Shown here one piece after another: positions 10,493 to 62,529 of a stretch of 64,000 bases of DNA; position 1 is the first letter of the stretch, and every line of letters begins with the position of its first letter. Made by a program: the position numbers and the translations under genes. Source of the DNA: an uncultured delta proteobacterium (GTDB lineage Bacteria; Desulfobacterota; Desulfuromonadia; Desulfuromonadales; CAWBQR01); the NCBI GenBank assembly GCA_963791005.1, contig CAWBQR010000017.1:29455-93454 (forward strand). The letters are read 5' to 3'. The notes under the pieces are model-generated. The model had not been told where the DNA came from, did no database searches, and saw only the letters and a list, made by a program, of their open reading frames with translations.

Positions 10493-10568
10493 TGGTGATC
10501 CCCACGGGAATCGAACCCGTGTTACCGACGTGAAAGGCCGGTGTCCTAGACCGCTAGACGAGGGGACC
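10493..10568 (-). tRNA. tRNA-Glu(TTC)
   Basis: GGTCCCCTCGTCTAGCGGTCTAGGACACCGGCCTTTCACGTCGGTAACACGGGTTCGATTCCCGTGGGGATCACCA; cloverleaf with encoded CCA. Confidence 0.97.
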
Positions 10569-10600
10569 GTATATTGAGCGGAGCAATCTCCGTTTGCAAC

Positions 10601-10675
10601 TGGCTGGGGTGCTAGGATTCGAACCTAGGTATGACGGAGTCAGAGTCCGTTGCCTTACCGCTTGGCGACACCCCA
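10601..10675 (-). tRNA. tRNA-Gln(CTG)
   Basis: TGGGGTGTCGCCAAGCGGTAAGGCAACGGACTCTGACTCCGTCATACCTAGGTTCGAATCCTAGCACCCCAGCCA. Confidence 0.97.
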
Positions 10676-26448: not shown

Positions 26449-27669
26449 TCAATGATTTGGAATCTTACCCAAACCTTGACCTGTATTACTTCCTAAGCCA
26501 AGGTGGCCTAATGTCTCCCTGCACCCTGCCTTAAAAAGAAAGGATGTTCTTTTAAAAATAGGTCTCGGATCCTTCAAATCAAAAATTGCAAAAACGTGCG
26601 GATTGAAATAGGGCCGAAGGTATTCCCGAACCGAATATTTCTCCTGCTTGAAATACATTGCGCTGTACCCCAAATCCCGGGCGCTGTCGATCCAGTAGAT
26701 ACCTTTCCGATAATCTGAAACGCCGGGGGTATCTCCGTACGCAAGGTGGCGGTAATGAAGCCAGGGAAAATTAATGCCGCAACGCACCGCCAGAAGGGTT
26801 GACAGGTTGTGGCGTCCGTTGACCTCCATCAGTTTGAATACGCCGTTCCGCGGGTCTTTTTTGAACTCGGTGCAGGCATAACCGGAAAACCCCAGAGCCC
26901 GGAGAATTTTCCGCCCCGGTTCAAGAACCTCGGGGATATCCTGGCTGATCACCACCCGTGGCGACCCGAACCACGGAGGAGCGTTCCTGACATGCCTGGC
27001 AGTGAATTCCGCCAGTGGTTTTCCATCCCAGAAATAAGCGTTGTAGTTGACGACCAGATTGTCATCACCCGGGATATATTCCTGAAGCATTACTTCGAGC
27101 CCGTGTTCCCGGGCTTGAACGAACACCTCTTTCATCCGGCCCGGATTGTCCACCTGAAACATCTTCGTCCCGAAACATTGGTAAAACAGGTGGCTCTGGC
27201 AAGGCTTGATCAGGCAGGGAAATTCGATGGTCTTTCCGTACCTTTCAACCTCTTCCAGACTTGCCGGGACGAGTGTCCTGGGAGCCGGTATGCCATGGGC
27301 ATCCGCCAGAGAGTAGGTAAATTTTTTATCAATGAACTTTCGGGTGACATCCCATCCCGTGCAGGCAACGGCATACAGATTCTCGAGTTCCGCGATGTTT
27401 CTGGAGACGGCAACCAGGGTCTCATCCGAAACGGGTATCAGCACTCCGCCTTTGAACTGAACTGAAATCTCCCTGAGCAGTTCCATGAATTCCTTTTCGC
27501 ACCTACCCGGATGAGGGGCCTCAATTGCCCTCACCACATATTTGGAAACATGCGCCATGTCCCTTTCTTCATAATGCACAAGAACTACAGGCACCCCCCT
27601 CTCCCCTAAAGAGCGGACGACTCCCAAGGCCATTGTATGCCCGGACAGGATGATCGCAGGCTTCAGCAT
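26449..27669 (-). CDS. ATP-grasp carboxylate-amine ligase (D-aspartate ligase-like)
   Basis: LGVVRSLG, FPCLIKP, LQEYIPG, EFKKDPRNG..KLMEVNGR. Confidence 0.85.
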   Translation of the reverse strand: MLKPAIILSGHTMALGVVRSLGERGVPVVLVHYEERDMAHVSKYVVRAIEAPHPGRCEKEFMELLREISVQFKGGVLIPVSDETLVAVSRNIAELENLYAVACTGWDVTRKFIDKKFTYSLADAHGIPAPRTLVPASLEEVERYGKTIEFPCLIKPCQSHLFYQCFGTKMFQVDNPGRMKEVFVQAREHGLEVMLQEYIPGDDNLVVNYNAYFWDGKPLAEFTARHVRNAPPWFGSPRVVISQDIPEVLEPGRKILRALGFSGYACTEFKKDPRNGVFKLMEVNGRHNLSTLLAVRCGINFPWLHYRHLAYGDTPGVSDYRKGIYWIDSARDLGYSAMYFKQEKYSVREYLRPYFNPHVFAIFDLKDPRPIFKRTSFLFKAGCRETLGHLGLGSNTGQGLGKIPNH

Positions 27670-27847
27670 ATCTCTTTCCCTCCAGATACAACTTGAGTAA
27701 GTTTGTATTAATGGATATACCCGGGAAGCGTTAATTCAATTCCCCAAAAGTTTGATTTTAAAACTGATTTTTTAAAACGAAAGTTTGGTTCTTAATGAGG
27801 GAGATGAGAAAGAAAATGAAACCGTGTGGAGGGAACCAGGAAATTTT

Positions 27848-28906
27848 TCAGGAGAGAGAATTTGTCCTATACAAAGGAAAATAGCCCAAGTATCTAGATT
27901 TCCTATCTAATGTTTCAGTTTTTGATTTAGCCAGATAATCATATTTTTCTTCATCGAATATCATTCGATAAGTATAAAAACTTTTTCTCAAAGGAGAAAA
28001 TCCACACTTAAAATTAAAAAGCGAATCGTTTTCGCCGCCGAACCCTCCACCGAGATGAAGTTTTTTTATTTTTTTTTCAATTCCCCATGAAGTCATAAAA
28101 TCAAAAATAATTTTTGATGGAGCCTTTTTAAGGAATTTCTCTTTTGTTCCGCCAAGATGATATTCAATAATATCAATGGTTTCAGTAAACAATCCCGATG
28201 CAGCAACTTCTCCTGACGGAGAAAACACGGTACATAAATGCAGGGCAGACTTAAGCTGGCTTCTCAAATCCTCGAAATATGAAGTGGGAAAAAAGTAAAA
28301 ATTGTCGGCGTTCAATCTTCTCATGGATTCGTAGTATATTTCCTTGAAATCATTGTAATAATTCCATTCATCCATTTTTACTGTAAACCCCTCTTTATAA
28401 AGTTTCTTTATGTCTCGCTTGTGGTTTTCTCTTAACTGCTTCCAAATTTCATTTTTATTCTGAGTAAGGTTTATGAAAACCGTTTCCCCGTGCTTAACCA
28501 GTACCCCATATTCTTCGAGGATCTCCAACGGCAATGGCAGAAGGGGGTGAAGTCGGATAAAGGCGGAAATCATGTTTCTGGCCCGGCATGTTTCGGCCCA
28601 AGCTTCCAGGAAATCGTTTAATTGTACTAAATTTTTTCCCGGATAAAAAATGGGTGAAGGATATCCGTAGGGGTTTATCAAATCGCGCCAATCATTGGGG
28701 GCGCCAAGTTCCGGGGGAATTTGTCTGACCAGCAGCGGCATAAGGAATTTTTCCCCTTGATCCTCGCAAAAAAAAGCGAGAGGGCCTCCCCCCTCGTGCT
28801 TCCCTGACAAGAGGAGGAATTCGGGACGTTGGTAAATATCATGAGGCGCCGACCTCAACAAATCGGCCCATCGTCCATCTGAGGGTTCGATAAATTCAGC
28901 TCGCAT
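27848..28906 (-). CDS. GNAT/FemAB-like acyl- or aminoacyl-transferase
   Basis: PYGYPSP, FIRLHPLL, YHLGGT, LHLGGG...LFNFKCGF. Confidence 0.8.
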   Translation of the reverse strand: MRAEFIEPSDGRWADLLRSAPHDIYQRPEFLLLSGKHEGGGPLAFFCEDQGEKFLMPLLVRQIPPELGAPNDWRDLINPYGYPSPIFYPGKNLVQLNDFLEAWAETCRARNMISAFIRLHPLLPLPLEILEEYGVLVKHGETVFINLTQNKNEIWKQLRENHKRDIKKLYKEGFTVKMDEWNYYNDFKEIYYESMRRLNADNFYFFPTSYFEDLRSQLKSALHLCTVFSPSGEVAASGLFTETIDIIEYHLGGTKEKFLKKAPSKIIFDFMTSWGIEKKIKKLHLGGGFGGENDSLFNFKCGFSPLRKSFYTYRMIFDEEKYDYLAKSKTETLDRKSRYLGYFPLYRTNSLS

Positions 28907-28917
28907 GTTCTTTCTAT

Positions 28918-30090
28918 TTATTGCTTTGTTTTTAAAGATTCAACCATATCATCGTTCCCTAAAATCGTCTTTTTCTGGACGAGCCCGAGATTTTTCATGA
29001 TTACCTGATTAACTTTGGTCACCTCATATTTTTCTTCGGCAATTTTTCTGCTTTCCATGCCCATCGGGGGAATCAGAGTGGGGTTGTAAATGAACTTTTC
29101 CATGGCTTCCACAAGTGCCGGGACGTTTTTTACGGGCACCAGAAAACCATTGATCCCCTCCCTGACTGTCTCGCGACAGCCTGGAGCATCCGTGGTAATG
29201 ATGGGCCGGCCCATTGCCATTGCCTCAAGTACCGTACGCGGTGTCCCCTCCCGGTAGGAAGGAAGAACGTAAACCGAAGAATTCGCAATAGCGGGCCTAA
29301 CGTCATCTAACATACCTAGATATTCCACAACTCCTTCCTGCGTCCAACAATCCAAATCTTGCTTTTTAATTGCGGTCGGGTTTCTGTCAATAAATCCGAC
29401 CAGGTAAAATTTGGCCTTATATCCTTTGTTTTTAATGATAGAGGCAGCCTCGATGTATTCAAGAATCCCCTTGTCCTTTATCAAACGGGCAATCAACAAA
29501 AAGGAAATCTCTGTTGGAAAATTTTGGGGATAAAAATATTTGGTATCCACACCAGAACCGTTAATTAATGTTTGATTTATATTTTTATTCGTTATTTTTA
29601 AATCTGAAAATAATTTCAAATCATCCGGGTTTTGAAAGAAGATAATACTATTAAACCGTAGTGCAATTTTGTATAATTTTATTACAAAAATTTTAATTAT
29701 TTTCGTTCTAAAATCTTTACCTATAAAAGAATATCCAAGACCAGTTATAATTGAAGAAACAAAAGGGATATGTGCAATTTTTGCACAAATTGAACCGTAA
29801 ACAACAGGCTTTATTGTATAAAACAAAACCTTATCTGGTTTTAGTTTTTTGAAAATTCCAACAAGAACGCTTAAGTCCTGGATGTCTGTCACTGGATTGA
29901 TTCCAACCCTGTTGAAATTTACCTTGATAGGTTCGACTCCAATATCAATAAGAATTTTTTTAATATATTCAGGAAAACTTGGCGCACAGACGATAACCTC
30001 ATGTCCGTTTTCAACCATCTCCTCCAAAAGCTTACCTCTGAAGGTAACAAGTGACTCCCCAACATTTCCTAAAACCAGAACTCTTCCCAT
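28918..30090 (-). CDS. Glycosyltransferase family 4 (CapM-like)
   Basis: IKPVVYG, FQNPDD, LPSYREGTPRTVLEAMAMG. Confidence 0.92.
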   Translation of the reverse strand: MGRVLVLGNVGESLVTFRGKLLEEMVENGHEVIVCAPSFPEYIKKILIDIGVEPIKVNFNRVGINPVTDIQDLSVLVGIFKKLKPDKVLFYTIKPVVYGSICAKIAHIPFVSSIITGLGYSFIGKDFRTKIIKIFVIKLYKIALRFNSIIFFQNPDDLKLFSDLKITNKNINQTLINGSGVDTKYFYPQNFPTEISFLLIARLIKDKGILEYIEAASIIKNKGYKAKFYLVGFIDRNPTAIKKQDLDCWTQEGVVEYLGMLDDVRPAIANSSVYVLPSYREGTPRTVLEAMAMGRPIITTDAPGCRETVREGINGFLVPVKNVPALVEAMEKFIYNPTLIPPMGMESRKIAEEKYEVTKVNQVIMKNLGLVQKKTILGNDDMVESLKTKQ

Positions 30091-30127
30091 AATCAAAGGC
30101 CCAAAAAGAGTTTACCCGGATAACGGA

Positions 30128-31351
30128 CTACTTATTCGTCCCCTTTATATTCATGAATTTTTCCGTCCGTTCCTTTACGTTTTTGTAAAATTCAACCCGC
30201 CTTTTTTGCAATAATTCGCTTCGGTACCCTTTTGATTTTTCCAAATTCCGAATGCTCATTTGAGCCATTCTGTCTGGGTCGCTCAAAATATCCCGGATTT
30301 TTTTGCCGAGGGAATCCACATCGTCAGGCGGAACCAGATCATCGGCGTCAAGAAGCTCCGGAATCCCACTTGCCGTAGAGCCGATACAGGGCAATCCCCT
30401 GGCCATTGCTTCGATCATGGCCCTCGGCAGCCCCTCGCCCCTGGAAGGCAGAACAAAAAGGTCGGCTTTGTCCAATTGCTCCCTTATCGCCTCCCCCGAA
30501 GGCAATCGGCCCAAAAAACGAATTCTTCCTTCCAGTCCCTTGGATGCCACCCTTTGTTCCAGACCAGGACGAAATTTCCCGTCGCCGATGATGTTTAAGT
30601 GTAGCTCCACGCCTAGGGCGCCGCAAAGAACGACAGAATCTATCAATATGTCGGGAGCCTTATACAATTGATCAAGAGTCCCTACAAAAATTAGATTGTA
30701 TTTTTCTTTTTTATTAAAATTTCTGGGCTTTTCAATATATGCCCCTTGTTTCATCTGAATGCTTGAATAGTGGGTACTGAAAGCACCTACTGACGGAGGA
30801 TAACGTTTTTGCAAGGCAAATTCAGTTACATACGAAACAGCACAAGCTCTGGAACATTGATACTTTAATTTATTTGTAAACATGATTCTGAAAATTGGAC
30901 GCAAAGGGTGTCTTATAGCTCCTGGTCCAAATACGTCATAGGGGTCTGATACGACTTCCATCCCATAGGGAAATTTACTTTTATTAAACTCATCAATAAA
31001 AAGAGACCCTATCTTTCCAGGGGTTCTGGCAATAAAGGAAGAATTCATTTTCTGTTTCAAAAAAACGGATCGTACCTTTTTTTTAATCTCAATTGATTTT
31101 TTCAAGTATTGCGTTGGTCCGTGGTAATAAGGGAGCGAAACAAAAAACACCCCCTCACCTGTAACTGGACTCATTGCCTGCTTTATGTCTGGAATATTCT
31201 TATCTTGAAGTCTACCAACAACTATTACTCTATCAAATGCGTCTAGATATTTTTTGAAATAGTTGTATCCTGCTCCATGTTCATTATTTGTAACTACATT
31301 TCCATAAGAGTCCAATATAAACCGTGTCTCAGAAGTTAGAACAAGATTCAT
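30128..31351 (-). CDS. Glycosyltransferase family 4
   Basis: FVLPSRGEGLPRAMIEAMARG (EX7E motif). Confidence 0.9.
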   Translation of the reverse strand: MNLVLTSETRFILDSYGNVVTNNEHGAGYNYFKKYLDAFDRVIVVGRLQDKNIPDIKQAMSPVTGEGVFFVSLPYYHGPTQYLKKSIEIKKKVRSVFLKQKMNSSFIARTPGKIGSLFIDEFNKSKFPYGMEVVSDPYDVFGPGAIRHPLRPIFRIMFTNKLKYQCSRACAVSYVTEFALQKRYPPSVGAFSTHYSSIQMKQGAYIEKPRNFNKKEKYNLIFVGTLDQLYKAPDILIDSVVLCGALGVELHLNIIGDGKFRPGLEQRVASKGLEGRIRFLGRLPSGEAIREQLDKADLFVLPSRGEGLPRAMIEAMARGLPCIGSTASGIPELLDADDLVPPDDVDSLGKKIRDILSDPDRMAQMSIRNLEKSKGYRSELLQKRRVEFYKNVKERTEKFMNIKGTNK

Positions 31352-31361
31352 ATTAATTCTC

Positions 31362-32798
31362 CTAAGGATGTTGCCTAAACTTATATTCGTAATTTTTATT
31401 TTTCTTTGAATTTAATTTAGAAATTTGAACCATAAAAAACAATAGAACAAAACCCATTACTATAGTTGAAGGCACAAAAACGAATCCATTTCTTACCTGT
31501 ATAAGCAAAGGGAATAATATGAATCCTGCGGCAAGTTGGCGGATTTGAGTTGAAGGCCACAAGTCCATCCAAGCCAAAAGGATTCCCGTGAAAAGCATTA
31601 TCAACAAAACTCCCGTTTTTCCAAAATTTCGATAAGCTTCAGCAATGGGAGAAAATCCTATCGGTCCAACTCTTTGTTGAATCAAGACATTCATAAGCCG
31701 AACATCCTCATCGGCTGGAGGCCGGGACCACCCTGGGATCAAATAGATCATCGCCCTATCAAATGGAGCCCAGTAACTGCTGCCATGAATGAACGGCTCT
31801 CCGGCCTGTGCCCAGGACACGGCTTCCACCACGGGCCTGATGGACCCCCCCAACTCCGCCAGTCCACCAATTGGGCTTATCTGACCACTTGAAGGTTCAA
31901 ACTCGCCAAGGCCCACATGCCTTATTTGCTTAAACAGGGAGATGGCGCTCAGGAGACATATTCCCAAAACAAAGGTTTTCCTGGGGGACAAAGGAATCTT
32001 TTTCATAGATACAACCGCCAGAGCGGAAAAAACCGGGAAAAGGACTTCTCCCCTCAGGCCCAGAGGAAGACCCACCAGGGCAAAGATGGAAAAGATCAAA
32101 AAACCGGCCCGTCTTGCCCTGGACGGCGGACACACCGCCAGGATAATCAACCCCCATGCCATGCAGAAATATAACCAGTTCAGATGAGAACCTTTCGTGA
32201 CGGCCAGGAATACCGGATAGGAGGTTCTCAATAGCAATTTAAACCCTCCAAGGCGAAAGACCGTTAAAAACCACAAAAAGGTGGAAAAGCTTATAAGAAA
32301 AAATCCAGTTTTCCAAAGGACATTATTTAAATCAGGGATACTTTCATCACTATTATCCCATACTTTTTCTGGTTTTTTTCTAAATAGATTCACTAAAGAG
32401 ACGCCAGCAACAAGTCCTGTAAATCCTATATTTACCAATATAATGGCATACTTTGATTCATAAGAATAAAACCAAGTTGCCAAATAAGAATTAAATGAGG
32501 ATGACAAATTAAATCCCAAACCAATAACTAGTATTAAACCGTAATGAAATAAACAAAATATTATCCCATAAACTGAATAAATGGACCAGAATGTTTTTTT
32601 GCTAGATTTCATTAAATAAATTACAGAAATAAGCATTATTACAATTGAAATTGAAAATAATTTTGAAAATGACCATGTTTCCATTACAACTAGATATTCA
32701 CATTGTGCGACACTTATAAAAACAAAAAACAACAAACCAAAAACAAAAAATAAGCTGTGGCGTTCTCCTTCTTGATCTAATTCGGTGTATTCAGCCAT
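31362..32798 (-). CDS. wzy: Wzy polysaccharide polymerase
   Basis: About 11 TM helices, LGLRGEVL and IGFSPIAEAYRNFG motifs, inside the GT cluster. Confidence 0.8.
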   Translation of the reverse strand: MAEYTELDQEGERHSLFFVFGLLFFVFISVAQCEYLVVMETWSFSKLFSISIVIMLISVIYLMKSSKKTFWSIYSVYGIIFCLFHYGLILVIGLGFNLSSSFNSYLATWFYSYESKYAIILVNIGFTGLVAGVSLVNLFRKKPEKVWDNSDESIPDLNNVLWKTGFFLISFSTFLWFLTVFRLGGFKLLLRTSYPVFLAVTKGSHLNWLYFCMAWGLIILAVCPPSRARRAGFLIFSIFALVGLPLGLRGEVLFPVFSALAVVSMKKIPLSPRKTFVLGICLLSAISLFKQIRHVGLGEFEPSSGQISPIGGLAELGGSIRPVVEAVSWAQAGEPFIHGSSYWAPFDRAMIYLIPGWSRPPADEDVRLMNVLIQQRVGPIGFSPIAEAYRNFGKTGVLLIMLFTGILLAWMDLWPSTQIRQLAAGFILFPLLIQVRNGFVFVPSTIVMGFVLLFFMVQISKLNSKKNKNYEYKFRQHP

Positions 32799-32813
32799 TT
32801 GGGAACTCCATTA

Positions 32814-33947
32814 TCAATGAGACCATATCTCTAAAAGCTTCCTTTTGCAGTTATCCAAATCGAACGGACTATCGGCAATTCGATCAAGAGCCTCCTCCCG
32901 AAAGTTTTGGGAAGGTTTGGCACAAATCTCGGACGCCGTCGAGGCCCAGACCTGGTCCGGGGCATCAACCGGCAAGCACGTGATCAAACCATCCAGCACG
33001 CTCTTGATTTCCACAATCCCCGCCAGATGACTTGCCAGAACCGGAGTTCCGGCAGCACAGGATTCGACGACAGCCCCAGGCAAACCTTCCCATAAAGAAG
33101 GGAAAAGCATCAGGTCGGCCGCCTTGAGAAGCCTGGGCACATCCTCGCGTTCACCCGCAAACACGACCCTTCCGTCCACACCCAGAGCCAGGGCCTGCTG
33201 CCTCAACTCCTCCCCCATCTGGTTGTCCTCCCGCCCAACAACCAAAAGGCGGGCATTCGGATCAAGGCGGCCTATTTGCTGAAATACAGCCAGAAGCTTT
33301 CGATGGTTTTTGGCTGGAGTCATTCTCCCAACGTGTATGTAAAGCCTGCAGGGTTCGGGCAAACCGAATTCCCTTCGTACTTCTTTTGGCACAGGCTTCC
33401 CTTTAAATGGGGAAAGGTCAAATCCGTTGTAGATTACCTCGCAGCGAGAATCAAAGGTCCAGTCCGTTCCCCAGGCCGAAACCATTGCCGCTTCCGAGAC
33501 CGAGACAATTTTCGATGCGTAGCGATTTAAAAAGTATTTCATAACCATGGTCTTACAACGCCTGGCCAGGGTGTTTTTTTTCCCGTCATTGGTACTTCTG
33601 AAATGAGCCACCCGCACCGGCACTTTTTCCCATGCAGCCAGGAGCAGCATTAATCCAGAGGCCATAAAGACGTGCGAGTGAACCGTATGAAATCTCTTCT
33701 TTTGGAGAAGGCGCCGAAATTTGAACGGAAAATCCGGCCCGATTTTGAGAAAATGAATATCGCCCCCCAGCTGCAGAATTTCTTCATCGAGCTCTCCGGG
33801 CAAGCCGGAGAGGACGCAAAACTCAAATTTGAACTGCGAAGGGTCGATACTCCGCATCAATTCAATGGTCCGTATCTCCGCTCCTCCACGGACCATTCGT
33901 CCGAAAATATGAAGAATTGTCCTGGGGGAAGGGTTCTCATTTGACAT
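32814..33947 (-). CDS. Glycosyltransferase family 4 (EpsF/CapH-like)
   Basis: GGAE, HVGRMTPAKNH, PSLWEGLPGAVVE. Confidence 0.9.
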   Translation of the reverse strand: MSNENPSPRTILHIFGRMVRGGAEIRTIELMRSIDPSQFKFEFCVLSGLPGELDEEILQLGGDIHFLKIGPDFPFKFRRLLQKKRFHTVHSHVFMASGLMLLLAAWEKVPVRVAHFRSTNDGKKNTLARRCKTMVMKYFLNRYASKIVSVSEAAMVSAWGTDWTFDSRCEVIYNGFDLSPFKGKPVPKEVRREFGLPEPCRLYIHVGRMTPAKNHRKLLAVFQQIGRLDPNARLLVVGREDNQMGEELRQQALALGVDGRVVFAGEREDVPRLLKAADLMLFPSLWEGLPGAVVESCAAGTPVLASHLAGIVEIKSVLDGLITCLPVDAPDQVWASTASEICAKPSQNFREEALDRIADSPFDLDNCKRKLLEIWSH

Positions 33948-33961
33948 TTTTGGATATTTCC

Positions 33962-35281
33962 TCAAGCATATGTATTTCTAAGAGCATGAGAAATTACATA
34001 TATTTTAATCGGAATCTGAACAATAAACATATTAATTATACTTATAGCAGCCCCCATGATTCCCATAACTGGTATAAGGAAATATGAGGATATGGAAACT
34101 ACCAACAAAGAGGCAATGGCTATGGGCACCTGTACTTTAAAATGTCGAGCAGATGTAATTGCCACACCTAGAAATGATGATATATAACTAAGACATGATG
34201 CTATCATTATAAAAAGGAACACTTCATTATATTGTGAATATTCCTTTCTATACAAAATGCTCAAAATTTCTTTTCCAAAAATTCTTATAATAAATATACC
34301 GGATATTCCGACTACCGCTCCTATTCCAACCAGTTTAACTAACAACCCGACAAACTTCAAAGACCCTTGCGATGAATAATATTTTGCCAATCGTGGACTT
34401 GCCGCCTGACCAAGTGCAGATACTATCGCAGTCCCGGCAACCATGAGATAGGCCATAGCCGCAAAAATACCCAAATCATGCTCACCATTAAATTTTTCGA
34501 TCAAGTATCTTGGAATATTGGTATTTAACGAATTCAACATGGTCACTATCCCCAAAGGAAGAGACAATAATGTTAAATTTTTCATAATATTTTTACTAGT
34601 TTTCAATGAGTGCAAATAACTTGAAATATTCTTGCTGGCAAATAGTCTGAATTTACCATTTGTGAATCTTTTCCCGTTAGGATAATCATAGAAAAAAAAT
34701 ATTATGATTTTTGCAAAAACAAGACTTAATGTTGCAAAAAATACATCTCTTGTTACCAAAAAACCAAGAAACATTGCCGTCAGTGACAATATCCCCCTTA
34801 AGATCATTGATTTTCCAATTACATTCATGGATTCATTTTTTTGAAAAAGTCCATAAAATGCATCACTTAATGCCTCAACGCTTTTGCTTCCCGCAACAGC
34901 CAAAACGACCAGTGCCGTTTCAACTTTATATTTAGTAAAAAATATAATAATTAAAATCAATATCGCTGCAAGAGACGTCATGACAACTCTGAGTTTAAAG
35001 TAGTCTTCAAAACAAAAAGAATTTTTTGCATCTGTTGCCTGCACAGCCCGGAGGTTGAGATTTGCAAACATGAAAACAGGGGCTGCAACTGCAAGGCCCA
35101 GCGCAAACTGTCCCACGCTGTCAGGGGTCCCCAGTTTTGCAAGAACCACCAAAATTCCCCACTGGCACCCCGCATAAATGACATTCCCGGCCAGGGTCCA
35201 GGAAAAATTTCTGCGCAGGGACAATCCCTTTTTTATTCCTGTCTGGGCATCGGCTGCCGTGTTCAGACTGATATGAGGCAT
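33962..35281 (-). CDS. wzx: Wzx flippase
   Basis: LRRNFSWTLAGNVIYAGCQW...GQFALGLA; about 12 TMs. Confidence 0.88.
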   Translation of the reverse strand: MPHISLNTAADAQTGIKKGLSLRRNFSWTLAGNVIYAGCQWGILVVLAKLGTPDSVGQFALGLAVAAPVFMFANLNLRAVQATDAKNSFCFEDYFKLRVVMTSLAAILILIIIFFTKYKVETALVVLAVAGSKSVEALSDAFYGLFQKNESMNVIGKSMILRGILSLTAMFLGFLVTRDVFFATLSLVFAKIIIFFFYDYPNGKRFTNGKFRLFASKNISSYLHSLKTSKNIMKNLTLLSLPLGIVTMLNSLNTNIPRYLIEKFNGEHDLGIFAAMAYLMVAGTAIVSALGQAASPRLAKYYSSQGSLKFVGLLVKLVGIGAVVGISGIFIIRIFGKEILSILYRKEYSQYNEVFLFIMIASCLSYISSFLGVAITSARHFKVQVPIAIASLLVVSISSYFLIPVMGIMGAAISIINMFIVQIPIKIYVISHALRNTYA

Positions 35282-35526
35282 AAGTACTTCCAACCTGCAA
35301 ATTAGCTTCGGCAAACGTCTAAGGGGCTGTTATCGGAAACACCGGAATTCCAATGGTTTCATAACGTATCCATTTTTTAAATTGATATCGTGTATATATT
35401 TGATATAGCTCAAAAAAACATGATGTCAATCGAACACGGGACCAGAAGCTTTCACTTGATAAAGAGTTTATTTGAAAGAATTTCAATAATGTCCTTCCCT
35501 TAGGGCTCCTGAATACATCCGCGGAT

Positions 35527-36807
35527 TCAGGGGCGCGGAGCAACAGAATGAAAAAACCTGCGACCGGCAGATCGGTGATTCATATCGGCTATGTCGACAC
35601 TCTCGAAGTCGGCTGCAGTGACCTTTCCACCGAACCCTTGTCCCCTGCTGGCGGTAATGGTGGTGGCAGAGCCGATTCTGTCCCCCCCTCCCCCGAAGGA
35701 TATGGCCTGGGACACGGTATTGTTTGCGTGGGGCAAACTCCAATTGGTTCCGTTATGGTAGGCAATACATCCCGTGAACGAACTGCCGTTGGTCGTACCA
35801 TTTTCATCAAACCCCCTGGCACGGTTCCCTATGGCGAAGCAGCGAATCAGGGTATGGCCCCCTCCCGACGAATCCGAATTGGGACGATAACCAAGGGCCT
35901 TGCCGAGCTTGAAGCCGTTCCCGTCGCCCTTTCTCCCCTTGCCGTTCCCAGCGGAAATGCAATCCTCATAATAATTGCCGACCGAGGCCCAGTTGTCCCA
36001 CCCGTCGTCGGAGTTGCCCATCGAGACGCAGCGATAGAAGATATTCTGCCCCCCCGAGGTGATGGAATAGCCATCGCCGGTATTCCCTGCGGTTTGGATG
36101 TTCGCATTGTCGCTGGAGGTGCAGTTGAAGAATTTCACCCGATACATCTCCTTGGCGTTGAATCCGGCTCCGTTGTTGTTGTGCAGATAAATGTTGTGGA
36201 ATTCACAGTCGGTCAGATTTTCGCCATAAATGCCGTTGGCGTTTTTGGTGGGATCGCTGTTTCGGATCTCCAGATTCCGGAAGATGAGCCAGGATTCGTT
36301 CAACAGGCGGACGAGATTTCCCCTCCCGTCGCTGCCGGTGCCGTCGATAATCGCCCATTCGCCGGGATAGGAGCGGATTTCCATGGGATGCTGCCGAGTT
36401 CCGAGCGCGTTCCTATTGATGATCACGGGAGAATAATAGATGCCCCCGCGCAGATAGATGGTGTCCCCGGCACTGGAGTGGGTCATGCCGTACTGGATGT
36501 GCTGCCACGGGGAGGAGATGGTGCCGGTGCCGCTGTCGGAGCCTGCAGGTGAGACATACCGGGAGACCCCGCCGTAGGGTGCAGCCTTGGGGTCGTCCTG
36601 GGCCACCATCGCCTTGTCGTAGCCGTAAAAGACAGGTTTTGTCTTATTCGGCAGGTTCAGGTCGGCAGGGGAAACGACCTTCCCGACTGAGGGAGTTGGA
36701 TGGTCTCTGCCGGAGGGAATTTCAATGGTAGGAGGGACTGCCCGCGCGCCGCATCCTTGGACGGAAAACAGAAAAACAAGCAAAGCGCCTACCAGCGAAT
36801 ACCTCAT
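35527..36807 (-). CDS. Lipoprotein with PL9-like right-handed beta-helix polysaccharide lyase domain
   Basis: Lipobox VQGC; YVSPAGSD..G, AGDTIYLRGG, NSDDGWD, GDGNGFKLG. Confidence 0.8.
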   Translation of the reverse strand: MRYSLVGALLVFLFSVQGCGARAVPPTIEIPSGRDHPTPSVGKVVSPADLNLPNKTKPVFYGYDKAMVAQDDPKAAPYGGVSRYVSPAGSDSGTGTISSPWQHIQYGMTHSSAGDTIYLRGGIYYSPVIINRNALGTRQHPMEIRSYPGEWAIIDGTGSDGRGNLVRLLNESWLIFRNLEIRNSDPTKNANGIYGENLTDCEFHNIYLHNNNGAGFNAKEMYRVKFFNCTSSDNANIQTAGNTGDGYSITSGGQNIFYRCVSMGNSDDGWDNWASVGNYYEDCISAGNGKGRKGDGNGFKLGKALGYRPNSDSSGGGHTLIRCFAIGNRARGFDENGTTNGSSFTGCIAYHNGTNWSLPHANNTVSQAISFGGGGDRIGSATTITASRGQGFGGKVTAADFESVDIADMNHRSAGRRFFHSVAPRP

Positions 36808-36991: not shown

Positions 36992-37029
36992 AAAAAAATG
37001 AGGCTTCCACCTTGCGGTGGAAGCCTCAT
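36992..37029 (-). terminator. Intrinsic terminator after the Ig/PL9 gene
   Basis: 14-bp stem ATGAGGCTTCCACC-GCAA-GGTGGAAGCCTCAT plus T-run. Confidence 0.85.
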
Positions 37030-37051: not shown

Positions 37052-39592
37052 TTAGAACAGAGGAACGACGGGATAGAAGTACCTCTGCCCGGCTGTCTGG
37101 TTGTTCATATTGGCAACGTCGACGCTTTCGTAGTCGGAGGTAGCGACCGATCCTCCGAACACCTGACCCATGCTGTCAATAACGTTGGTGGCGGAACCGA
37201 CGCTGCCCCCGGAGCCTCCGAAGGAGATGCCGTTGGTAACGGTATTGTTGGCATTGGGCAGGTGCCAGTTGGTGGCGTTGTTGTAGGAAATGCATCCCGT
37301 GAAGGTAATGCCGTTGGTCGTACCGTTCTCGTCAAATCCCCGGGAGCGGTTCCCGCTGGAGATACAACGAACCAGGGTATGCCCGCCACCCTCGGAATCG
37401 GGGTTGGGGGAATAGCCAAGAGCTTTGCCGAGCTTGAAGGCATTGCCGTTGCCGTTTGCCAACTTCCCGTTGTTGGCGGAAATGCAGTCCTCGTAATAAT
37501 TGCCGACAGAGGCCCAGTTGTCCCACCCGTCATCGGAGTTGCCTATCGAGACGCAACGGTAGAACTCGTTCTGCCCCCCCGAGGTGATGGAAAAACCATC
37601 GCCCGTGTTCCCGGCGGTTTGGATGTTCGCGTTGTCGCTGGCGGTGCAGTTGTAGAACTTCACGCGGTACAGCTCTTTGGCGTTCATACCGGCCCCGTTG
37701 TTGTTGTGCAGATAGATGTTGTGGAATTCACAATCGGTCAGATTTTCGCCATAAATGCCGTTGGCGTTTTTGGTGGGGTCGCTGTTTCTGATCTCCAGGT
37801 TTCGGAAGATAAGCCAGGACTCGTTTATCAGCCGGACGAGATTGCCGTTCCCATCGCTGCCGGTGCCGTCGATAACCGCCCATTCGCCGGGATAGGAACG
37901 GATCTCCATGGGATGCTGCTGGGTCCCGGGCGCGTTCCCGTTGATGGTCACGGGGGAATAATAAACCCCGCCACGCAGGTAGATGGTGTCCCCGGCGTTG
38001 GAGTGGGTCATGGCGTACTGAATATGCTGCCACGGGGAGGAGATGGAGCCGGTGCCGTTGTCGGACCCCGTGGGAGAAACATAACGGGAAACACCGCCGT
38101 AGGGCGCGGCATTGGAGTCGTCGTTGGCCCCCAACGTCTTGTCGTAACCGTAAAAGACTGTTGAGGAGGATGGTTGGGTGCTGGCGGGAGCAGAGATATT
38201 TACCGTCAAGGTGACGGGGCTGGAAACCCGGCTGTTCCCCGCCGCATCATAGGCCTTGGCGGTGAAGCTGTGGGTGCCGTCGGTTGAGCTCGAAACCGCC
38301 CACGCATAGATGTAAGGCGCCGCGCTATCGGTCCCCTTCAAGGTGGAGCCGTCATAGAACTCCACCTTGCTGATCCCCACGTTGTCCGAGGCCGAGGCGG
38401 TAACCGTCACGGTCTGGGCGCTGGTGTAGGTCGCATTGGCCGAAGGGCTGGAGATCGAAACGGTGGGCGCGGTGGTGTCTGCCGAAGCTTTATCATCGTC
38501 CACGATCGTTACGGCTGCCGTGGTGGGAGAGCCCAGGGTCGCTCCCCCGGTCGGGTTGTTTAGAAGAACGTTGAACGTTTCATTCCCTTCCACCAGGGTG
38601 TCCTGAATAATGTTGACGCTTACCACCTTGCTGGTTTCCCCGTCCGCAAAGGTCAGCGGAGTCCAGGAAACTCCCTGGTAGTCGACGTTGACCGTGGCGG
38701 TATTCTGCTGGGTGCCCCAATCGACCGTAACCGTGCCACCGCTGCCGCCGACCCGATTAACGGTGAGGTTGACCTTACCGGCCCCTTCTCCCACCGAGTA
38801 GGAAGCAGAACCGAATTGAAAGGTTCCAGGAGAAGAGGTGGAAGCGGATGCGATGTTCACGTTCAAGGTGTCCGGACTCGAAGTGGCGCTGTTGCCGGCG
38901 GCATCATAGGCCTTGGCGGTGAAGTTGTGGGTGCCGTCGAGAGAGCTGGAAATCGTCCACGAGCAGGTGAACGGAGAGGAGGTGTCGGTCCCCTTCAAGA
39001 TGGACCCGTCATAGAATTCCACCTTGCTGACCCCCACGTTGTCCGAAGCCGAAGCGGCAATCGTCACGGTCTGGGCGCTGGTGTAGGTGGTATTGGCCGC
39101 GGGGCTGGAAATCGAAACGGTCGGGGCGGTCGTGTCTGAGGGAGGCACTGCCACCGGTGCAGCAATATTCACCGCGAGGCTTACAGGGCTCGAAGTGGCG
39201 CTGTTTCCGGCGGCGTCATAGGCCCTGGCGGTAAAATTGTGCGTCCCGTTATTGGAGCTCGACACCGGCCACGAATAGGTGTAAGGCGCGGTGGTGTCTG
39301 TACCTTTCAAGGTGGACCCGTCATAGAACTCCACCTTGGTGACACCCACGTCATCCGATGCCGTAGCGGTAATGTTGACGGTTTGGGCGGAGGAGAAGGT
39401 GGTGTTCCCGGAGGGGGAGGTAATTGCTACCTGGGGAGGAGTCGTATCGCCGTGGCTCGTTATGAACTTATACCACGATGAAGCCCAGGTAGGGGGGGAT
39501 GCCTGTGCTTTTTGAGCATTTGCCAAACCAAAAAAGGTCAAGGACAATGCAACAAAGATAAACAAAGAAATTGAACGGTTTCTTGCCAACAT
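37052..39592 (-). CDS. Secreted protein: three bacterial Ig-like domains, Calx-beta and PL9-like beta-helix
   Basis: Signal peptide; three DTTxP...ASDxVGVxKVEFYDG...AYDAAGN repeats; Calx-beta (FADGETSK..DTLVEGNETF); NSDDGWD and NGNAFKLG. Confidence 0.88.
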   Translation of the reverse strand: MLARNRSISLFIFVALSLTFFGLANAQKAQASPPTWASSWYKFITSHGDTTPPQVAITSPSGNTTFSSAQTVNITATASDDVGVTKVEFYDGSTLKGTDTTAPYTYSWPVSSSNNGTHNFTARAYDAAGNSATSSPVSLAVNIAAPVAVPPSDTTAPTVSISSPAANTTYTSAQTVTIAASASDNVGVSKVEFYDGSILKGTDTSSPFTCSWTISSSLDGTHNFTAKAYDAAGNSATSSPDTLNVNIASASTSSPGTFQFGSASYSVGEGAGKVNLTVNRVGGSGGTVTVDWGTQQNTATVNVDYQGVSWTPLTFADGETSKVVSVNIIQDTLVEGNETFNVLLNNPTGGATLGSPTTAAVTIVDDDKASADTTAPTVSISSPSANATYTSAQTVTVTASASDNVGISKVEFYDGSTLKGTDSAAPYIYAWAVSSSTDGTHSFTAKAYDAAGNSRVSSPVTLTVNISAPASTQPSSSTVFYGYDKTLGANDDSNAAPYGGVSRYVSPTGSDNGTGSISSPWQHIQYAMTHSNAGDTIYLRGGVYYSPVTINGNAPGTQQHPMEIRSYPGEWAVIDGTGSDGNGNLVRLINESWLIFRNLEIRNSDPTKNANGIYGENLTDCEFHNIYLHNNNGAGMNAKELYRVKFYNCTASDNANIQTAGNTGDGFSITSGGQNEFYRCVSIGNSDDGWDNWASVGNYYEDCISANNGKLANGNGNAFKLGKALGYSPNPDSEGGGHTLVRCISSGNRSRGFDENGTTNGITFTGCISYNNATNWHLPNANNTVTNGISFGGSGGSVGSATNVIDSMGQVFGGSVATSDYESVDVANMNNQTAGQRYFYPVVPLF

Positions 39593-39666
39593 GTTTTCAC
39601 CTCACGAGTTTGATTTTTTCCTCCCCGATTTGGTATTTAAATTCAATGAACAGACATAAAAGACGT

Positions 39667-39704
39667 AAAAAATGCGTTTGCCTTTTTTTGCCGAAGACAA
39701 ACGC
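39667..39704 (-). terminator. Riboswitch-associated intrinsic terminator
   Basis: GCGTTTGTCTT-loop-AAGGCAAACGC followed by ATTTTTT, in the leader downstream of the proximal aptamer. Confidence 0.75.
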
Positions 39705-39751
39705 TTTCCCTTGAAGCCAAATCGTTCTTATCTGGCTGGAAAATTGTTGCT

Positions 39752-39830
39752 CTCTTCGGCAGCCGGACGGTCCCTCGTCAGGGATCCCTGGCTTTGCGTA
39801 ACAGGATTTCTCCGGTTTTGCCCTTTCGGA
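39752..39830 (-). ncRNA. Cyclic di-GMP-I (GEMM-I) riboswitch, proximal, G20 type
   Basis: CCGAAAGGGCAAAACCGGA-GAAA-TCCTGTTACGCAAAGCCAGGGATCCCT...AGGGACCGTCCGGCTGCCGAAG matches the GEMM-I P2/P3 pattern. Confidence 0.88.
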
Positions 39831-39984
39831 GTTTTTGAAGAACTGCTTTAAGTGATTAATGTAGCTTGTACTATTTAGTAGGCTCCTTTCCTTTGTTCGT
39901 CTTGCCGGATGCCTTGCGCAATTATCCTGCTTAACCTACCCAAATTTAAATGCCGGGTGGCCGGGTAAAATGTATTCACATCCA

Positions 39985-40064
39985 CTTCGGCAACCCGGCT
40001 ATCCTATCTTGCAAGGACCCGTGGCTTTGCGTCCCCGAATCTCTTCGAGTTTGCGCTTATCGGT
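39985..40064 (-). ncRNA. GEMM-I riboswitch, distal, C at position-20 equivalent
   Basis: CCGATAAGCGCAAACTCGAA-GAGA-TTCGGGGACGCAAAGCCACGGGTCCT...AGGATAGCCGGGTTGCCGAAG. Confidence 0.9.
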
Positions 40065-40209
40065 AATGTTTAAATATGTGGGTAAGCCTTAAGGAAGAAC
40101 GGAAGCGGTCGGAAATTTTCAAGTTTTTCCGGCCTGGCTTGAATAAAATTTACTTTTCTAGTCTTAAATATAAAAAACAACGAAATTCTAAAACGTTACA
40201 GCCATTCTA

Positions 40210-40226
40210 AGCACGTCCCGTGCCAA
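40210..40226 (-). promoter_or_regulatory. Sigma-54 (-24/-12) promoter
   Basis: TTGGCACGGGACGTGCT: GG-N10-GC with a near-consensus TGGCACG. Confidence 0.75.
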
Positions 40227-40662
40227 CTCATAAACCACTGAGAATATTTGCGTTCGATTTCCTGGTCTTCCAATTGTGTTTCATCTCGACAACACCTTGA
40301 TGCAATTAGGACACAATCTGAGCTAACCACGATCTGCTATTTGCACGTCTTCCGATCTTCTTGTCCCGAGACCAGAATCCCTCAAAACAAAACCGCGAAA
40401 TGACAAAATTGGACACCAGAAGAACGTCATTTGGCGATGATTAATAGGATTAAATAGGTGAGCCTTACTTTTTTATTTCATGACAACCGAAACTGAGCCA
40501 GATTTGACACAGACACTGCCTTCCAAGTTCAACATCATTGCAGGGAAGTTCTACCCCGAAGTTTCATCTTTCACTAGGTGCGGCCCCGCAGGATAAGAAG
40601 AACCCATCCACCTTTCCATCCTGTTCATTTGCACAGTTGAGCTTGTTCTGAAAATTGAAAAT

Positions 40663-40726: not shown

Positions 40727-42127
40727 TTACGGCTCCAGCTTCCCCTGGACGCTCTTCAGGCGCCGCAGGCTCTCGTCCTTTCCCAGGACGGAAATGACTT
40801 CATAAATGCCGGGGCTGACCGTCCCCCCGGTCAAAGCCACCCGAACAGCGGGACCGATTTTCCCGAGCTTCAGACCGGTTTCAGCCATGACCTCGGCAAA
40901 GGCATTGCCGATTCCCTGTTCGGAAAAATCATGACATGCCGCGAGGCGGCGGATGACGGCATCAAACACAGGAGCCTTGTCAGGTGTCAGGAACCTGGCC
41001 GCAGCTTCCGGGTCGTATTCAATCTCATTTTTAAAGTAGAAGGCCGCTCCCTGGGCCATTTCGACCATCGTCCTTGCCCGCTCCTGAAGCGTTTTAACCA
41101 CCGCCGGCAACTCCGGGCCTCCCTCAGGGTCTACACCCTGCCCGGGAAGATATCCCCGCAGCAGGTCTCCCAGCCGTTCGGGGTCGCCGGTTTTGATGTA
41201 ATGGGCATTCAGCCAGAGAAGTTTGTCCGGGTTGAAGACCCCGGCCGACCTCCCAACGTTTTCCAGGCTGAACTTTTCGATAAGCTCCTCCATGGAAAAA
41301 ATCTCCTGATCGCCAAAGGACCATCCAAGGCGTACCAGGTAGTTCACCATGGCTTCGGGAAGATACCCCAACTCCCGATAGGCCATCACCGAGGTAGCCC
41401 CGTGGCGCTTGGAAAGCCGCGTCTTGTCGGCGCCGAGAATCATCGGAACGTGGGCGAACTCGGGAACGGGGTAGCCGAGGGCCTGGTACATCAGGATCTG
41501 CCTGGGAGTATTGTTGATGTGGTCGTCCCCCCGCACGACGAGGGTCATCCCCATGGTAGCGTCGTCCACGACGACGACGAAATTATAGGTCGGCGTGCCG
41601 TCGGAGCGCTGGATGATGAGGTCGTCAAGCTCCTCATTCTGAAATGTTATGGAGCCTTTTATGCGGTCGTGGAAGGAGGTCTCTCCTACCTGGGGAGAGC
41701 GGAAACGTACCACGAAAGGCTTGTCCTTCGGCTGGTCGCTTCGGTGTCGGCAGGTCCCGTCGTATTTGGGTTTCTGCCCGGTTTTCAGGGCCTGTTCCCT
41801 TTTGGTTTCCAGCTCCTCGGGGGTGCAGTAACACCGGTATGCTTTACCTTCGGAGAGCAGCTGGTCCACCTTTTCCCGGTAGAGATCGAAACGCTCGGAC
41901 TGGTAATAGGGCCCCTCGTCGCAGGAGAGCCCCAACCAGTCCATGGCCTGAAGAATGGCATCCACCGATTCCTGGGTCGAGCGGGCGACATCGGTATCCT
42001 CGATGCGCAGAACAAAGGTCCCATTTTCCCTGCGAGCCAGAAGATAATTGAAAAGGGCCGTCCGGGCACCCCCGATATGGAGGTAGCCGGTGGGGCTGGG
42101 AGCAAAACGGACACGCAAGCCGGACAT
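40727..42127 (-). CDS. gltX: Glutamate--tRNA ligase
   Basis: [14 protein letters not shown] (HIGH motif) and RLSKRHG (KMSKS motif). Confidence 0.98.

Positions 42128-43961: not shown

Positions 43962-44035
<74 letters not shown>

Positions 44036-62454: not shown

Positions 62455-62529
<75 letters not shown>

Follow-up and report, generated by a model that had tools for sequence, protein, structure and literature searches.

A leader with two GEMM-I riboswitches of different pocket base and predicted opposite polarity behind a probable sigma-54 promoter in an uncultured Desulfuromonadales bacterium

We analyzed a 64,000-nucleotide (nt) stretch of contig CAWBQR010000017.1 (assembly GCA_963791005.1, an uncultured delta proteobacterium of the Desulfuromonadales), referred to here as the window, for the control of a minus-strand gene encoding an 846-aa secreted protein. 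Two complete aptamers of the GEMM-I riboswitch class lie in series on a single leader upstream of this gene, behind a sigma-54-type promoter element. They differ at the pocket base that discriminates between ligands (C20 in the first, G20 in the second), and each is followed by an expression platform of its own, predicted by folding to be of the ON type for the first aptamer and of the OFF type for the second. The GEMM-I class and the tandem arrangement are already known. What appears to be new, judging from sequence, is that a GEMM-Ib-like aptamer has the rare C20 pocket, that platforms of the ON and the OFF type follow one another on a leader, and that a sigma-54 promoter is conserved together with the riboswitch in front of the gene family of the 846-aa protein. 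The minus-strand features all fall within a 1,134-nt gap that runs from gltX to the 846-codon open reading frame (ORF); they are listed here in the order of transcription, followed by the ORF itself.

40226-40210 (-): -24/-12 promoter element, TTGGCACGGGACGTGCT, with GG at 40224-40223 and GC at 40212-40211.
40065-40198 (-): 5' leader segment, ~134 nt if transcription starts where we place it, AT-rich, with one small hairpin.
39985-40064 (-): GEMM-I aptamer 1 (Rfam model RF03167, 62.1 bits, cut-off 59, E 2.9e-12).
39942-39999 (-): platform 1, a 17-bp three-tier hairpin (39999-39952, -26.8 kcal/mol) with the tail AUUUAAAUUU (39951-39942).
39755-39832 (-): GEMM-I aptamer 2 (Rfam model RF01051, 56.9 bits, cut-off 35, E 1.7e-8).
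39749-39761 (-): 5' strand of the predicted antiterminator, UGCCGAAGAGAGC, formed by the 3' strand of aptamer 2 and the adjoining flank, and pairing with 39702-39689.
39705-39744 (-): self-contained spacer hairpin between the antiterminator strands, which forms in the free fold and in the bound-like fold alike.
39704-39667 (-): platform 2, a terminator with an 11-bp stem (GCGUUUGUCUU/AAGGCAAACGC), a 9-nt loop and -14.2 kcal/mol, then A+U6.
39603-39598 (-): ribosome site GAGGTG of the 846-aa ORF.
37052-39592 (-): ORF of the regulated gene, encoding the 846-aa secreted protein, ATG at 39592.

Comparison of the whole window with Rfam by cmscan at the curated gathering scores returned six matches, four tRNAs and the two aptamers, and the pocket columns were read from the cmscan alignments, where their posterior is '*'. 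In the numbering of the Vc2 riboswitch, G20 reads one base of the ligand and C92 the other, with A47 stacking between them, and A20 is the mark of the GEMM-Ib subclass that senses 3',3'-cyclic GMP-AMP (cGAMP) (PMC6140456, PMC9481103). Aptamer 2 has the standard pocket for cyclic di-GMP (c-di-GMP), with G20 (39822), A47 (39795), C92 (39759) and a GAAA tetraloop, whereas aptamer 1 has C20 (40055), A47 (40028) and C92 (39990), with a GAGA tetraloop on its first hairpin. All helices and the GNRA loop of aptamer 1 are intact, and with RF01051 alone it scores 67.5 bits, second best of the 12 GEMM-I matches in the assembly, in which base 20 is G in six, A in five and C in one. The A20 that defines GEMM-Ib is found in neither aptamer of the leader, with C at 40055 in the first and G in the second. 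Aptamer 1 also lacks the G that RF03167 has at the A47 position (GACGCAAAGCC against the consensus GACGCGAAgCc) and, because an A stands there, is not a true variant of that family. By its pocket bases, then, aptamer 1 is of neither the standard G20 nor the A20 type, nor a true RF03167 variant. It is 85% identical over 82 nt to an A20 aptamer elsewhere in the genome (G000:C6:191210; GAUAAG-C-GCAAAC against GAUAAG-A-GCAAAC), and it would descend from the genome's cGAMP-type (GEMM-Ib) aptamers, with C replacing A at the discriminator position.

The two platforms are built differently. The 5' arm of hairpin 1 is the 3' strand of aptamer 1 itself (GCCGGGU.GCCG pairs with CGGC.ACCCGGC), and aptamer and hairpin are mutually exclusive: none of the 12 arm pairs forms with aptamer 1 enforced and 11 of 12 form when it is free. 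This exclusive architecture, with clean U tracts, is also present at three other aptamers of the genome. Beyond a spacer of ~110 nt lies aptamer 2, whose 3' strand UGCCGAAG (39761-39754) is an exact 8-nt complement of CUUCGGCA (39696-39689), a segment spanning the top of the terminator 2 5' arm and part of its loop; we estimate the chance of such a complement at ~4e-4 for 24 positions. The 5' arm and loop of the terminator (39702-39689) form the 3' strand of the antiterminator, and with its flank included the antiterminator pairing covers nine of the 11 bases of that arm. The terminator hairpin proper occupies 39704-39674, with A+U6 running on to 39667; with its 9-nt loop it is unlisted in a simple terminator scan that allows loops of 3-8 nt only.

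The whole leader was then folded in four states, with each aptamer either enforced or free. The unconstrained fold takes the antiterminator (-56.6 kcal/mol), and enforcing aptamer 2 gives the aptamer plus the terminator (-48.1 kcal/mol), the free fold being better by 8.5 kcal/mol. All 11 pairs of the terminator 2 stem form with aptamer 2 enforced and none when it is free, when seven of eight antiterminator pairs form instead. The two aptamer-plus-platform units behaved independently in these folds, and only the state in which aptamer 1 is bound and aptamer 2 is free leaves hairpin 1 and terminator 2 both unformed. Cross-talk, in which the freed strand of hairpin 1 would pair with aptamer 2, was considered and found no support in the four states.

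A sequence-only reading of this DNA had placed a -24/-12 element at 40210-40226, two complete GEMM-I aptamers with different discriminator bases (39985-40064 and 39752-39830) on one shared leader, and then a terminator, all upstream of an Ig/PL9 gene. The Rfam covariance models recover both aptamers within three bases of those coordinates, the discriminators are indeed C20 and G20, no credible sigma-70 site was found by promoter scan between the sigma-54 element and aptamer 1, and the gene has the domains expected of it. The single terminator of that reading is confirmed as terminator 2, and to it is added that each aptamer has its own platform with a competing hairpin.

By analogy with two published architectures, the pilM riboswitch (ON) and the Cd1 riboswitch (OFF), we infer opposite polarities for the two switches. 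From the enhancer-dependent sigma-54 promoter, the gene for the 846-aa protein alone would be transcribed behind a ~600-nt leader with two independent GEMM-I riboswitches. In unliganded switch 1, the 3' half would pair with the downstream strand to give the long hairpin and its weak U tract, leading to a premature stop; ligand would prevent the hairpin, a pilM-like ON design. In unliganded switch 2, the 3' strand would pair with the 5' arm and loop of the strong terminator and permit read-through, and binding of c-di-GMP would lock the closing helix P1 and free the terminator, a Cd1-like OFF design. For output, ligand 1 and an activator signal would both have to be present and c-di-GMP would have to be low. 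The resulting logic, activator AND ligand 1 AND NOT c-di-GMP, is a tentative conclusion drawn from sequence and folding, to which we assign somewhat less than an even chance. The layered control that had been proposed for this leader holds for the most part, with a sigma-54 promoter and two aptamers on one leader, but aptamer 1 falls outside the A20 subclass: with C at position 20, the pairing of c-di-GMP with cGAMP becomes a guess. A merely sharpened response, which had also been raised, does not agree with platforms that are opposite in polarity by folding; because of that opposition, 'A AND NOT B' or band-pass logic is the likelier outcome.

The promoter element, TGGCACG-N4-GTGCT at 40225-40210(-), has GG and GC at sigma-54 spacing on the strand of the gene. 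The usual spacing to a -24/-12 element would put the transcription start near 40198, and the distance from promoter to aptamer 1 is 161 nt. The motif TGGCAC-N6-TGCW occurs once in the window against 0.15 expected (at least once in 15 of 100 shuffles) and 18 times in the assembly (6.79 Mb, both strands) against ~13 by chance according to our own arithmetic. As this count is near chance, the sequence match is weak evidence alone, and support for the promoter comes from other genomes. We searched the 846-aa protein against 233 genomes of the order, none of the same family, and found 18 other genomes with a homologue at E <= 1e-30. At least one GEMM-I aptamer was present in 11 of the 12 upstream regions of homologous genes that were examined; by this count, GEMM-I control of the gene family is conserved.

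The element itself recurs in these leaders. In 10 of 11 riboswitch-bearing homologous leaders, and in seven of eight genera, TGGCAY-N5-NTGCW is found on the same strand as the gene, at a distance of 87-162 nt before the first aptamer, the tally of genera being the more cautious because related genomes are not independent. Controls gave one match on the opposite strand of the homologues' upstream stretches, six in 61,922 nt taken from other parts of these loci (0.04 per 450 nt), a density of 0.03 per 450 nt across the assembly, and none at the nine other aptamer loci of the genome, several of which have sigma-70-like hexamers instead. The genome also encodes rpoN and has 22 matches to the Sigma54_activat domain, 16 of them near full length. 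These findings, which agree with the -24/-12 element seen earlier, argue that a sigma-54 promoter probably drives the gene for the 846-aa protein, and suggest that enhancer-dependent initiation combined with riboswitch attenuation before this one gene family is a rule across genera and not an accident. A search of open-access text found no literature linking sigma-54 promoters with GEMM riboswitches.

Two further loci bear on promoters and activators. The sole homologous leader without the sigma-54 motif within 450 nt upstream, L199 (G084:C12, 1553-2276), has three GEMM-I aptamers in series, A20, G20 and G20, before the homologue. At G000:C2:229656-230152 (-), just upstream of a GEMM-I aptamer (C2:228779-228918), two adjoining partial Sigma54_activat matches in separate frames (model positions 2-97 and 78-167) may represent a frameshifted activator gene.

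The C20 base of aptamer 1 is uncommon. Base 20 was G in 23 and A in eight of 31 aptamers from loci not chosen by this base, with no C and no U, a count from which eight regex matches without the first hairpin had been dropped by eye. A search of the order with a C20 pattern gave 16 other matches, and three of the 11 loci scanned are Rfam-confirmed C20 aptamers, all in other genera (L263 in G041, L273 in G198 and L274 in G024). Two of the three, from two species of one genus, have a sigma-70-like promoter and the same kind of membrane sensor gene downstream, and one C20 aptamer among the three precedes a multihaem-cytochrome-like ORF. A metagenome scan with AAG-C-GCAAA...GACGCAAAGCC found 52 loci, and 12 of the 13 that were screened scored over Rfam cut-offs; these 13 were kept by eye for an inner segment resembling the tetraloop hairpin, and six of them also passed a scripted filter. 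The metagenome pattern with the full context of aptamer 1 gave no match. Taken together, these counts indicate that C20 is rare yet recurrent in Rfam-confirmed aptamers of several lineages. Assembled DNA contigs agree with the window without differences over 39729-40290 (X1, in two pieces), 39560-39840 (X2) and 39560-39665 (X3).

Two broader pattern searches were set aside. The exact context CGAWAAGCGCAAAC had 19 other matches in the 233 genomes, none of them GEMM-I by Rfam, an outcome attributed to chance (a reversed-pattern control gave nine). A GTDB-wide C20 pattern matched at least 119 loci, mostly by chance, and no frequency was derived from it. Among the metagenome loci, L292 has a C20 aptamer whose best score is with the UAU variant model RF03168 (70.0 bits, cut-off 65.9) and whose 3' junction is altered (UUGCUGGAG); it may represent a further pocket combination. 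In the genome of the window, L011 (G000:C12:61512-61614 (+)) is an aptamer that carries G in place of A47 (GACGCGAAGCC), as in the RF03167 consensus, yet scores best with RF01051. The genome's second tandem pair, L001 (G000:C6:191209-191520 (+)), has A20 in both aptamers; its second aptamer is followed by CUUCGGCGG, a complement of its own 3' strand, and then by a pyrimidine stretch that could cover the ribosome site, an arrangement suggestive of translational control.

Literature on GEMM-I pocket bases, in its accessible text, yielded no ligand data for C20 aptamers. From base chemistry, the N4-amino/N3 edge of cytosine should present the same donor-acceptor pattern as the N6-amino/N1 edge of adenine, and, like A20, C20 in its protonated form could also recognize guanine. 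This likeness of the two edges makes cGAMP, or a mixture of cGAMP and c-di-GMP, the best guess for aptamer 1, with 3',3'-cGAMP as the most likely ligand by analogy. The Ser348 signature marks the Hypr GGDEF enzymes that make cGAMP (PMC6456294). One of 14 GGDEF-motif hits combines an N...S348-type serine with GGDEF and is a candidate Hypr enzyme, on a motif match only and in a genome that is 65% complete; it lies outside the window at G000:C2 ~271715 (-), with the motif FKEVNDRHGHLAGSTAL and GGDEF.

Among the alternatives to this logic, the one that fares best holds that only switch 2 works, aptamer 1 being a decaying duplicate with an A-to-C pocket mutation and an eroded U tract that polymerase passes regardless. 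The locus would then resemble the leaders of its homologues, which have a single aptamer in 10 of the 11 riboswitch-bearing cases, and the weak tail AUUUAAAUUU and the count of C20 in 0 of 31 aptamers both favor it. Against it stand the rank of aptamer 1, second of 12 GEMM-I matches at 67.5 bits with its helices and GNRA loop intact, and the intact 17-bp competing hairpin of -26.8 kcal/mol. So do the Rfam-confirmed C20 in three of 11 scanned loci of the order and 12 of 13 screened metagenome loci, and the position of two of the three loci from the order, in two species of one genus, before the same kind of sensor gene. On balance we regard a dead switch 1 as unlikely, though with an appreciable share of the probability.

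The pairing of the aptamer 2 3' strand was compared with that of aptamers elsewhere. For 12 of the 23 aptamers examined in other genomes, as for aptamer 2 of the window, the terminator that follows has its 5' arm where the best duplex partner of the aptamer 3' strand lies, and the variable flanks co-vary, as with CCGAAGAGAUGAGG and CCCUCAUCUUCGG or CCGAAGUGGGUG and CGCCCACCUUCGG. A reversed switch 2, in which c-di-GMP turns the gene on, would require structure beyond nested-pair folding, for example a pseudoknot between the aptamer 2 3' strand and the terminator loop. By our own geometry this is conceivable, since part of the sequence complementary to the aptamer strand falls in that loop and the lower stem could form as an H-type pseudoknot. 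Activation would also be the usual direction for surface and matrix genes under c-di-GMP, and the Bc1 riboswitch of Bacillus illustrates that GEMM-I platforms with dual terminators can behave unexpectedly (PMC11218506). One locus, L024, has two terminators that simple logic does not reconcile. Yet with aptamer 2 enforced nothing in the sequence competes with the strong terminator, the extended antiterminator covers nine of the 11 nt of the terminator 5' arm, and the design matches that of Cd1, which is OFF by experiment (PMC9262584). We consider the reversed polarity improbable.

The remaining alternative, an ordinary pseudo-cooperative doublet in which both aptamers sense c-di-GMP in the same direction and only sharpen the response, has precedent in the 347 doublets and 12 triplets of c-di-GMP-I that have been catalogued and read in this way (PMC9481103, PMC12452182), in the standard A47 and C92 of both aptamers and in the other doublet of this genome, but given platforms that differ in kind (aptamer and hairpin exclusive at switch 1, aptamer and terminator compatible at switch 2) and discriminators that differ (C against G), we give it little credence.

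Several observations weigh against the logic of activator AND ligand 1 AND NOT c-di-GMP. The tail of hairpin 1, AUUUAAAUUU, is an interrupted and poor U tract at which the simple scan saw no terminator, and hairpin 1 is an uncertain terminator. The duplex z-scores of aptamer 3' strands against shuffles are mostly modest (-0.4 to -4.9), and a clear antiterminator pairing is absent in the closest protein orthologues, L192-L194 (z about 0). At L024 (G026:C305), two structures follow a single G20 aptamer, first an aptamer-overlapping hairpin that has a U tract and next a distinct terminator with a loop complementary to the aptamer 3' strand; by the same simple logic, transcription of this leader would stop in every case, which hints that the logic may not be complete. 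The C20 base is backed by two low-depth contigs from one run, possibly the source sample. On the promoter side, no Sigma54_activat gene lies on the window's contig, and the search for an upstream activator site found only three short inverted repeats, none common to the homologues by eye. Finally, repression of a matrix-locus gene by c-di-GMP runs contrary to the usual expectation.

The regulated gene encodes, by domain search, a signal peptide, three Big_7 domains, a Calx-beta domain and a right-handed beta-helix, and a match to the PL9 pectate lyase 1RU4 covers residues 503-783 (E 9e-7), in keeping with the Ig/PL9 gene recognized earlier. Its flanks are as follows.

40727-42127: gltX, with its own terminator at 40681-40669.
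36998-37029 (-): strong terminator, a 14-bp stem then T7, directly after the stop codon of the 846-aa ORF.

Since the terminator at 36998-37029 stands right after the ORF, the leader is expected to govern that gene alone, as a monocistronic unit. The neighboring gene (35527-36807 (-)) encodes a beta-helix protein of 426 aa, which shares 78% identity with residues 469-844 of the 846-aa protein and is a tandem paralogue without the Ig and Calx-beta part, and such a pair of a large and a small gene is also found at the closest orthologous locus (G207:C19). Behind these two lyase-like genes lies a Wzx/Wzy-type polysaccharide cluster (26449-35314 (-)) with a flippase, a Wzy polymerase, three GT4 glycosyltransferases, a FemAB/GNAT-like protein and an ATP-grasp protein. 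From its domains and this setting beside a polysaccharide locus, the lyase-like protein could take part in matrix remodelling or degradation. The four tRNA genes of the window, all on the minus strand, are at 10496-10675 (two adjacent), 43965-44035 and 62458-62529.

With 3',3'-cGAMP or another dinucleotide as the ligand of the C20 aptamer, the leader would compute activator AND ligand 1 AND NOT c-di-GMP, setting a transient-attachment signal against a biofilm signal at a single matrix-lyase gene. The two dinucleotides mark different surface lifestyles in Geobacter-like bacteria (PMC6456294), and a gene that is expressed only when one is present and the other absent would report directly on the choice between lifestyles. 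Were the C20 aptamer instead to bind c-di-GMP at a different affinity, the leader would be a natural band-pass filter for c-di-GMP. Tandem GEMM-I aptamers are usually assumed to sharpen one signal, and opposite polarity with different pocket bases would mean that minor differences between members of one class can be enough to create two-signal or band-pass control. That the leader is a natural logic device made of two copies of one riboswitch class in opposite wiring, with C20/A47/C92 as an undescribed functional pocket variant, is a doubtful proposition that we put forward as such. The recurrent Rfam-confirmed C20 aptamers suggest a candidate new specificity variant of GEMM-I, and the cassette of sigma-54 promoter plus riboswitch, conserved across genera before one gene family, would combine control of initiation with control by attenuation.

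Tandem pairs of GEMM-I and GEMM-Ib aptamers are well represented among relatives. Several GEMM-Ib pairs are known in G. sulfurreducens with RNA-seq support (PMC6456294), a systematic survey counted 347 doublets and 12 triplets of c-di-GMP-I and read them as pseudo-cooperative (PMC9481103), and such tandems are enriched in Thermodesulfobacteriota (PMC12452182). The leader of the window resembles the Geobacter tandems, for example that before omcAHG, GSU2885, in having two complete aptamer-plus-platform units in one leader and a gene for a surface or extracellular protein downstream, and in belonging to a Geobacter-like lineage. The published pairs have been read as same-ligand and same-direction, in contrast to the C and G discriminators and opposite platform types found here. 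Mixed A20/G20 tandems also exist in the order, as in the A, G, G triple of L199.

Among variant aptamer families, c-di-GMP-I-GGC (RF03167) is the model under which aptamer 1 scores just over the cut-off (62.1 against 59), but its consensus has G where aptamer 1 has A (GACGCAAA in aptamer 1 against GACGCGAA in the consensus), and many ordinary A47 aptamers of the order match the model as well. The family c-di-GMP-I-UAU (RF03168) has U at position 20 in its consensus, so pocket variants with a pyrimidine at this position exist. The C20/A47/C92 combination of aptamer 1 is described by neither.

For the platforms, the pilM cGAMP riboswitch of G. metallireducens (ON) resembles platform 1 in that its aptamer and terminator hairpin are mutually exclusive, and the Cd1 c-di-GMP riboswitch of C. 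difficile (OFF) resembles platform 2 in that aptamer and terminator coexist and the antiterminator uses the 3' strand of the aptamer (PMC9262584). The leader of the window differs from both in having the two designs in series, in its C20 in place of A20 and in its weak U tract, and its designs are predicted by folding. No two-input gate made of two GEMM-I members is listed in Table 2 of PMC9481103, and the accessible literature, that survey included, yielded no natural band-pass riboswitch. The closest published logic is that of the 'A AND NOT B' gates, for example those formed by ZTP with THF-I and by Na+-I with c-di-AMP, where an ON switch is likewise followed by an OFF switch and each has its own terminator (PMC9481103). 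Those gates pair unrelated riboswitch classes, whereas the putative gate described here would be built from a single class, its two members one pocket base apart.

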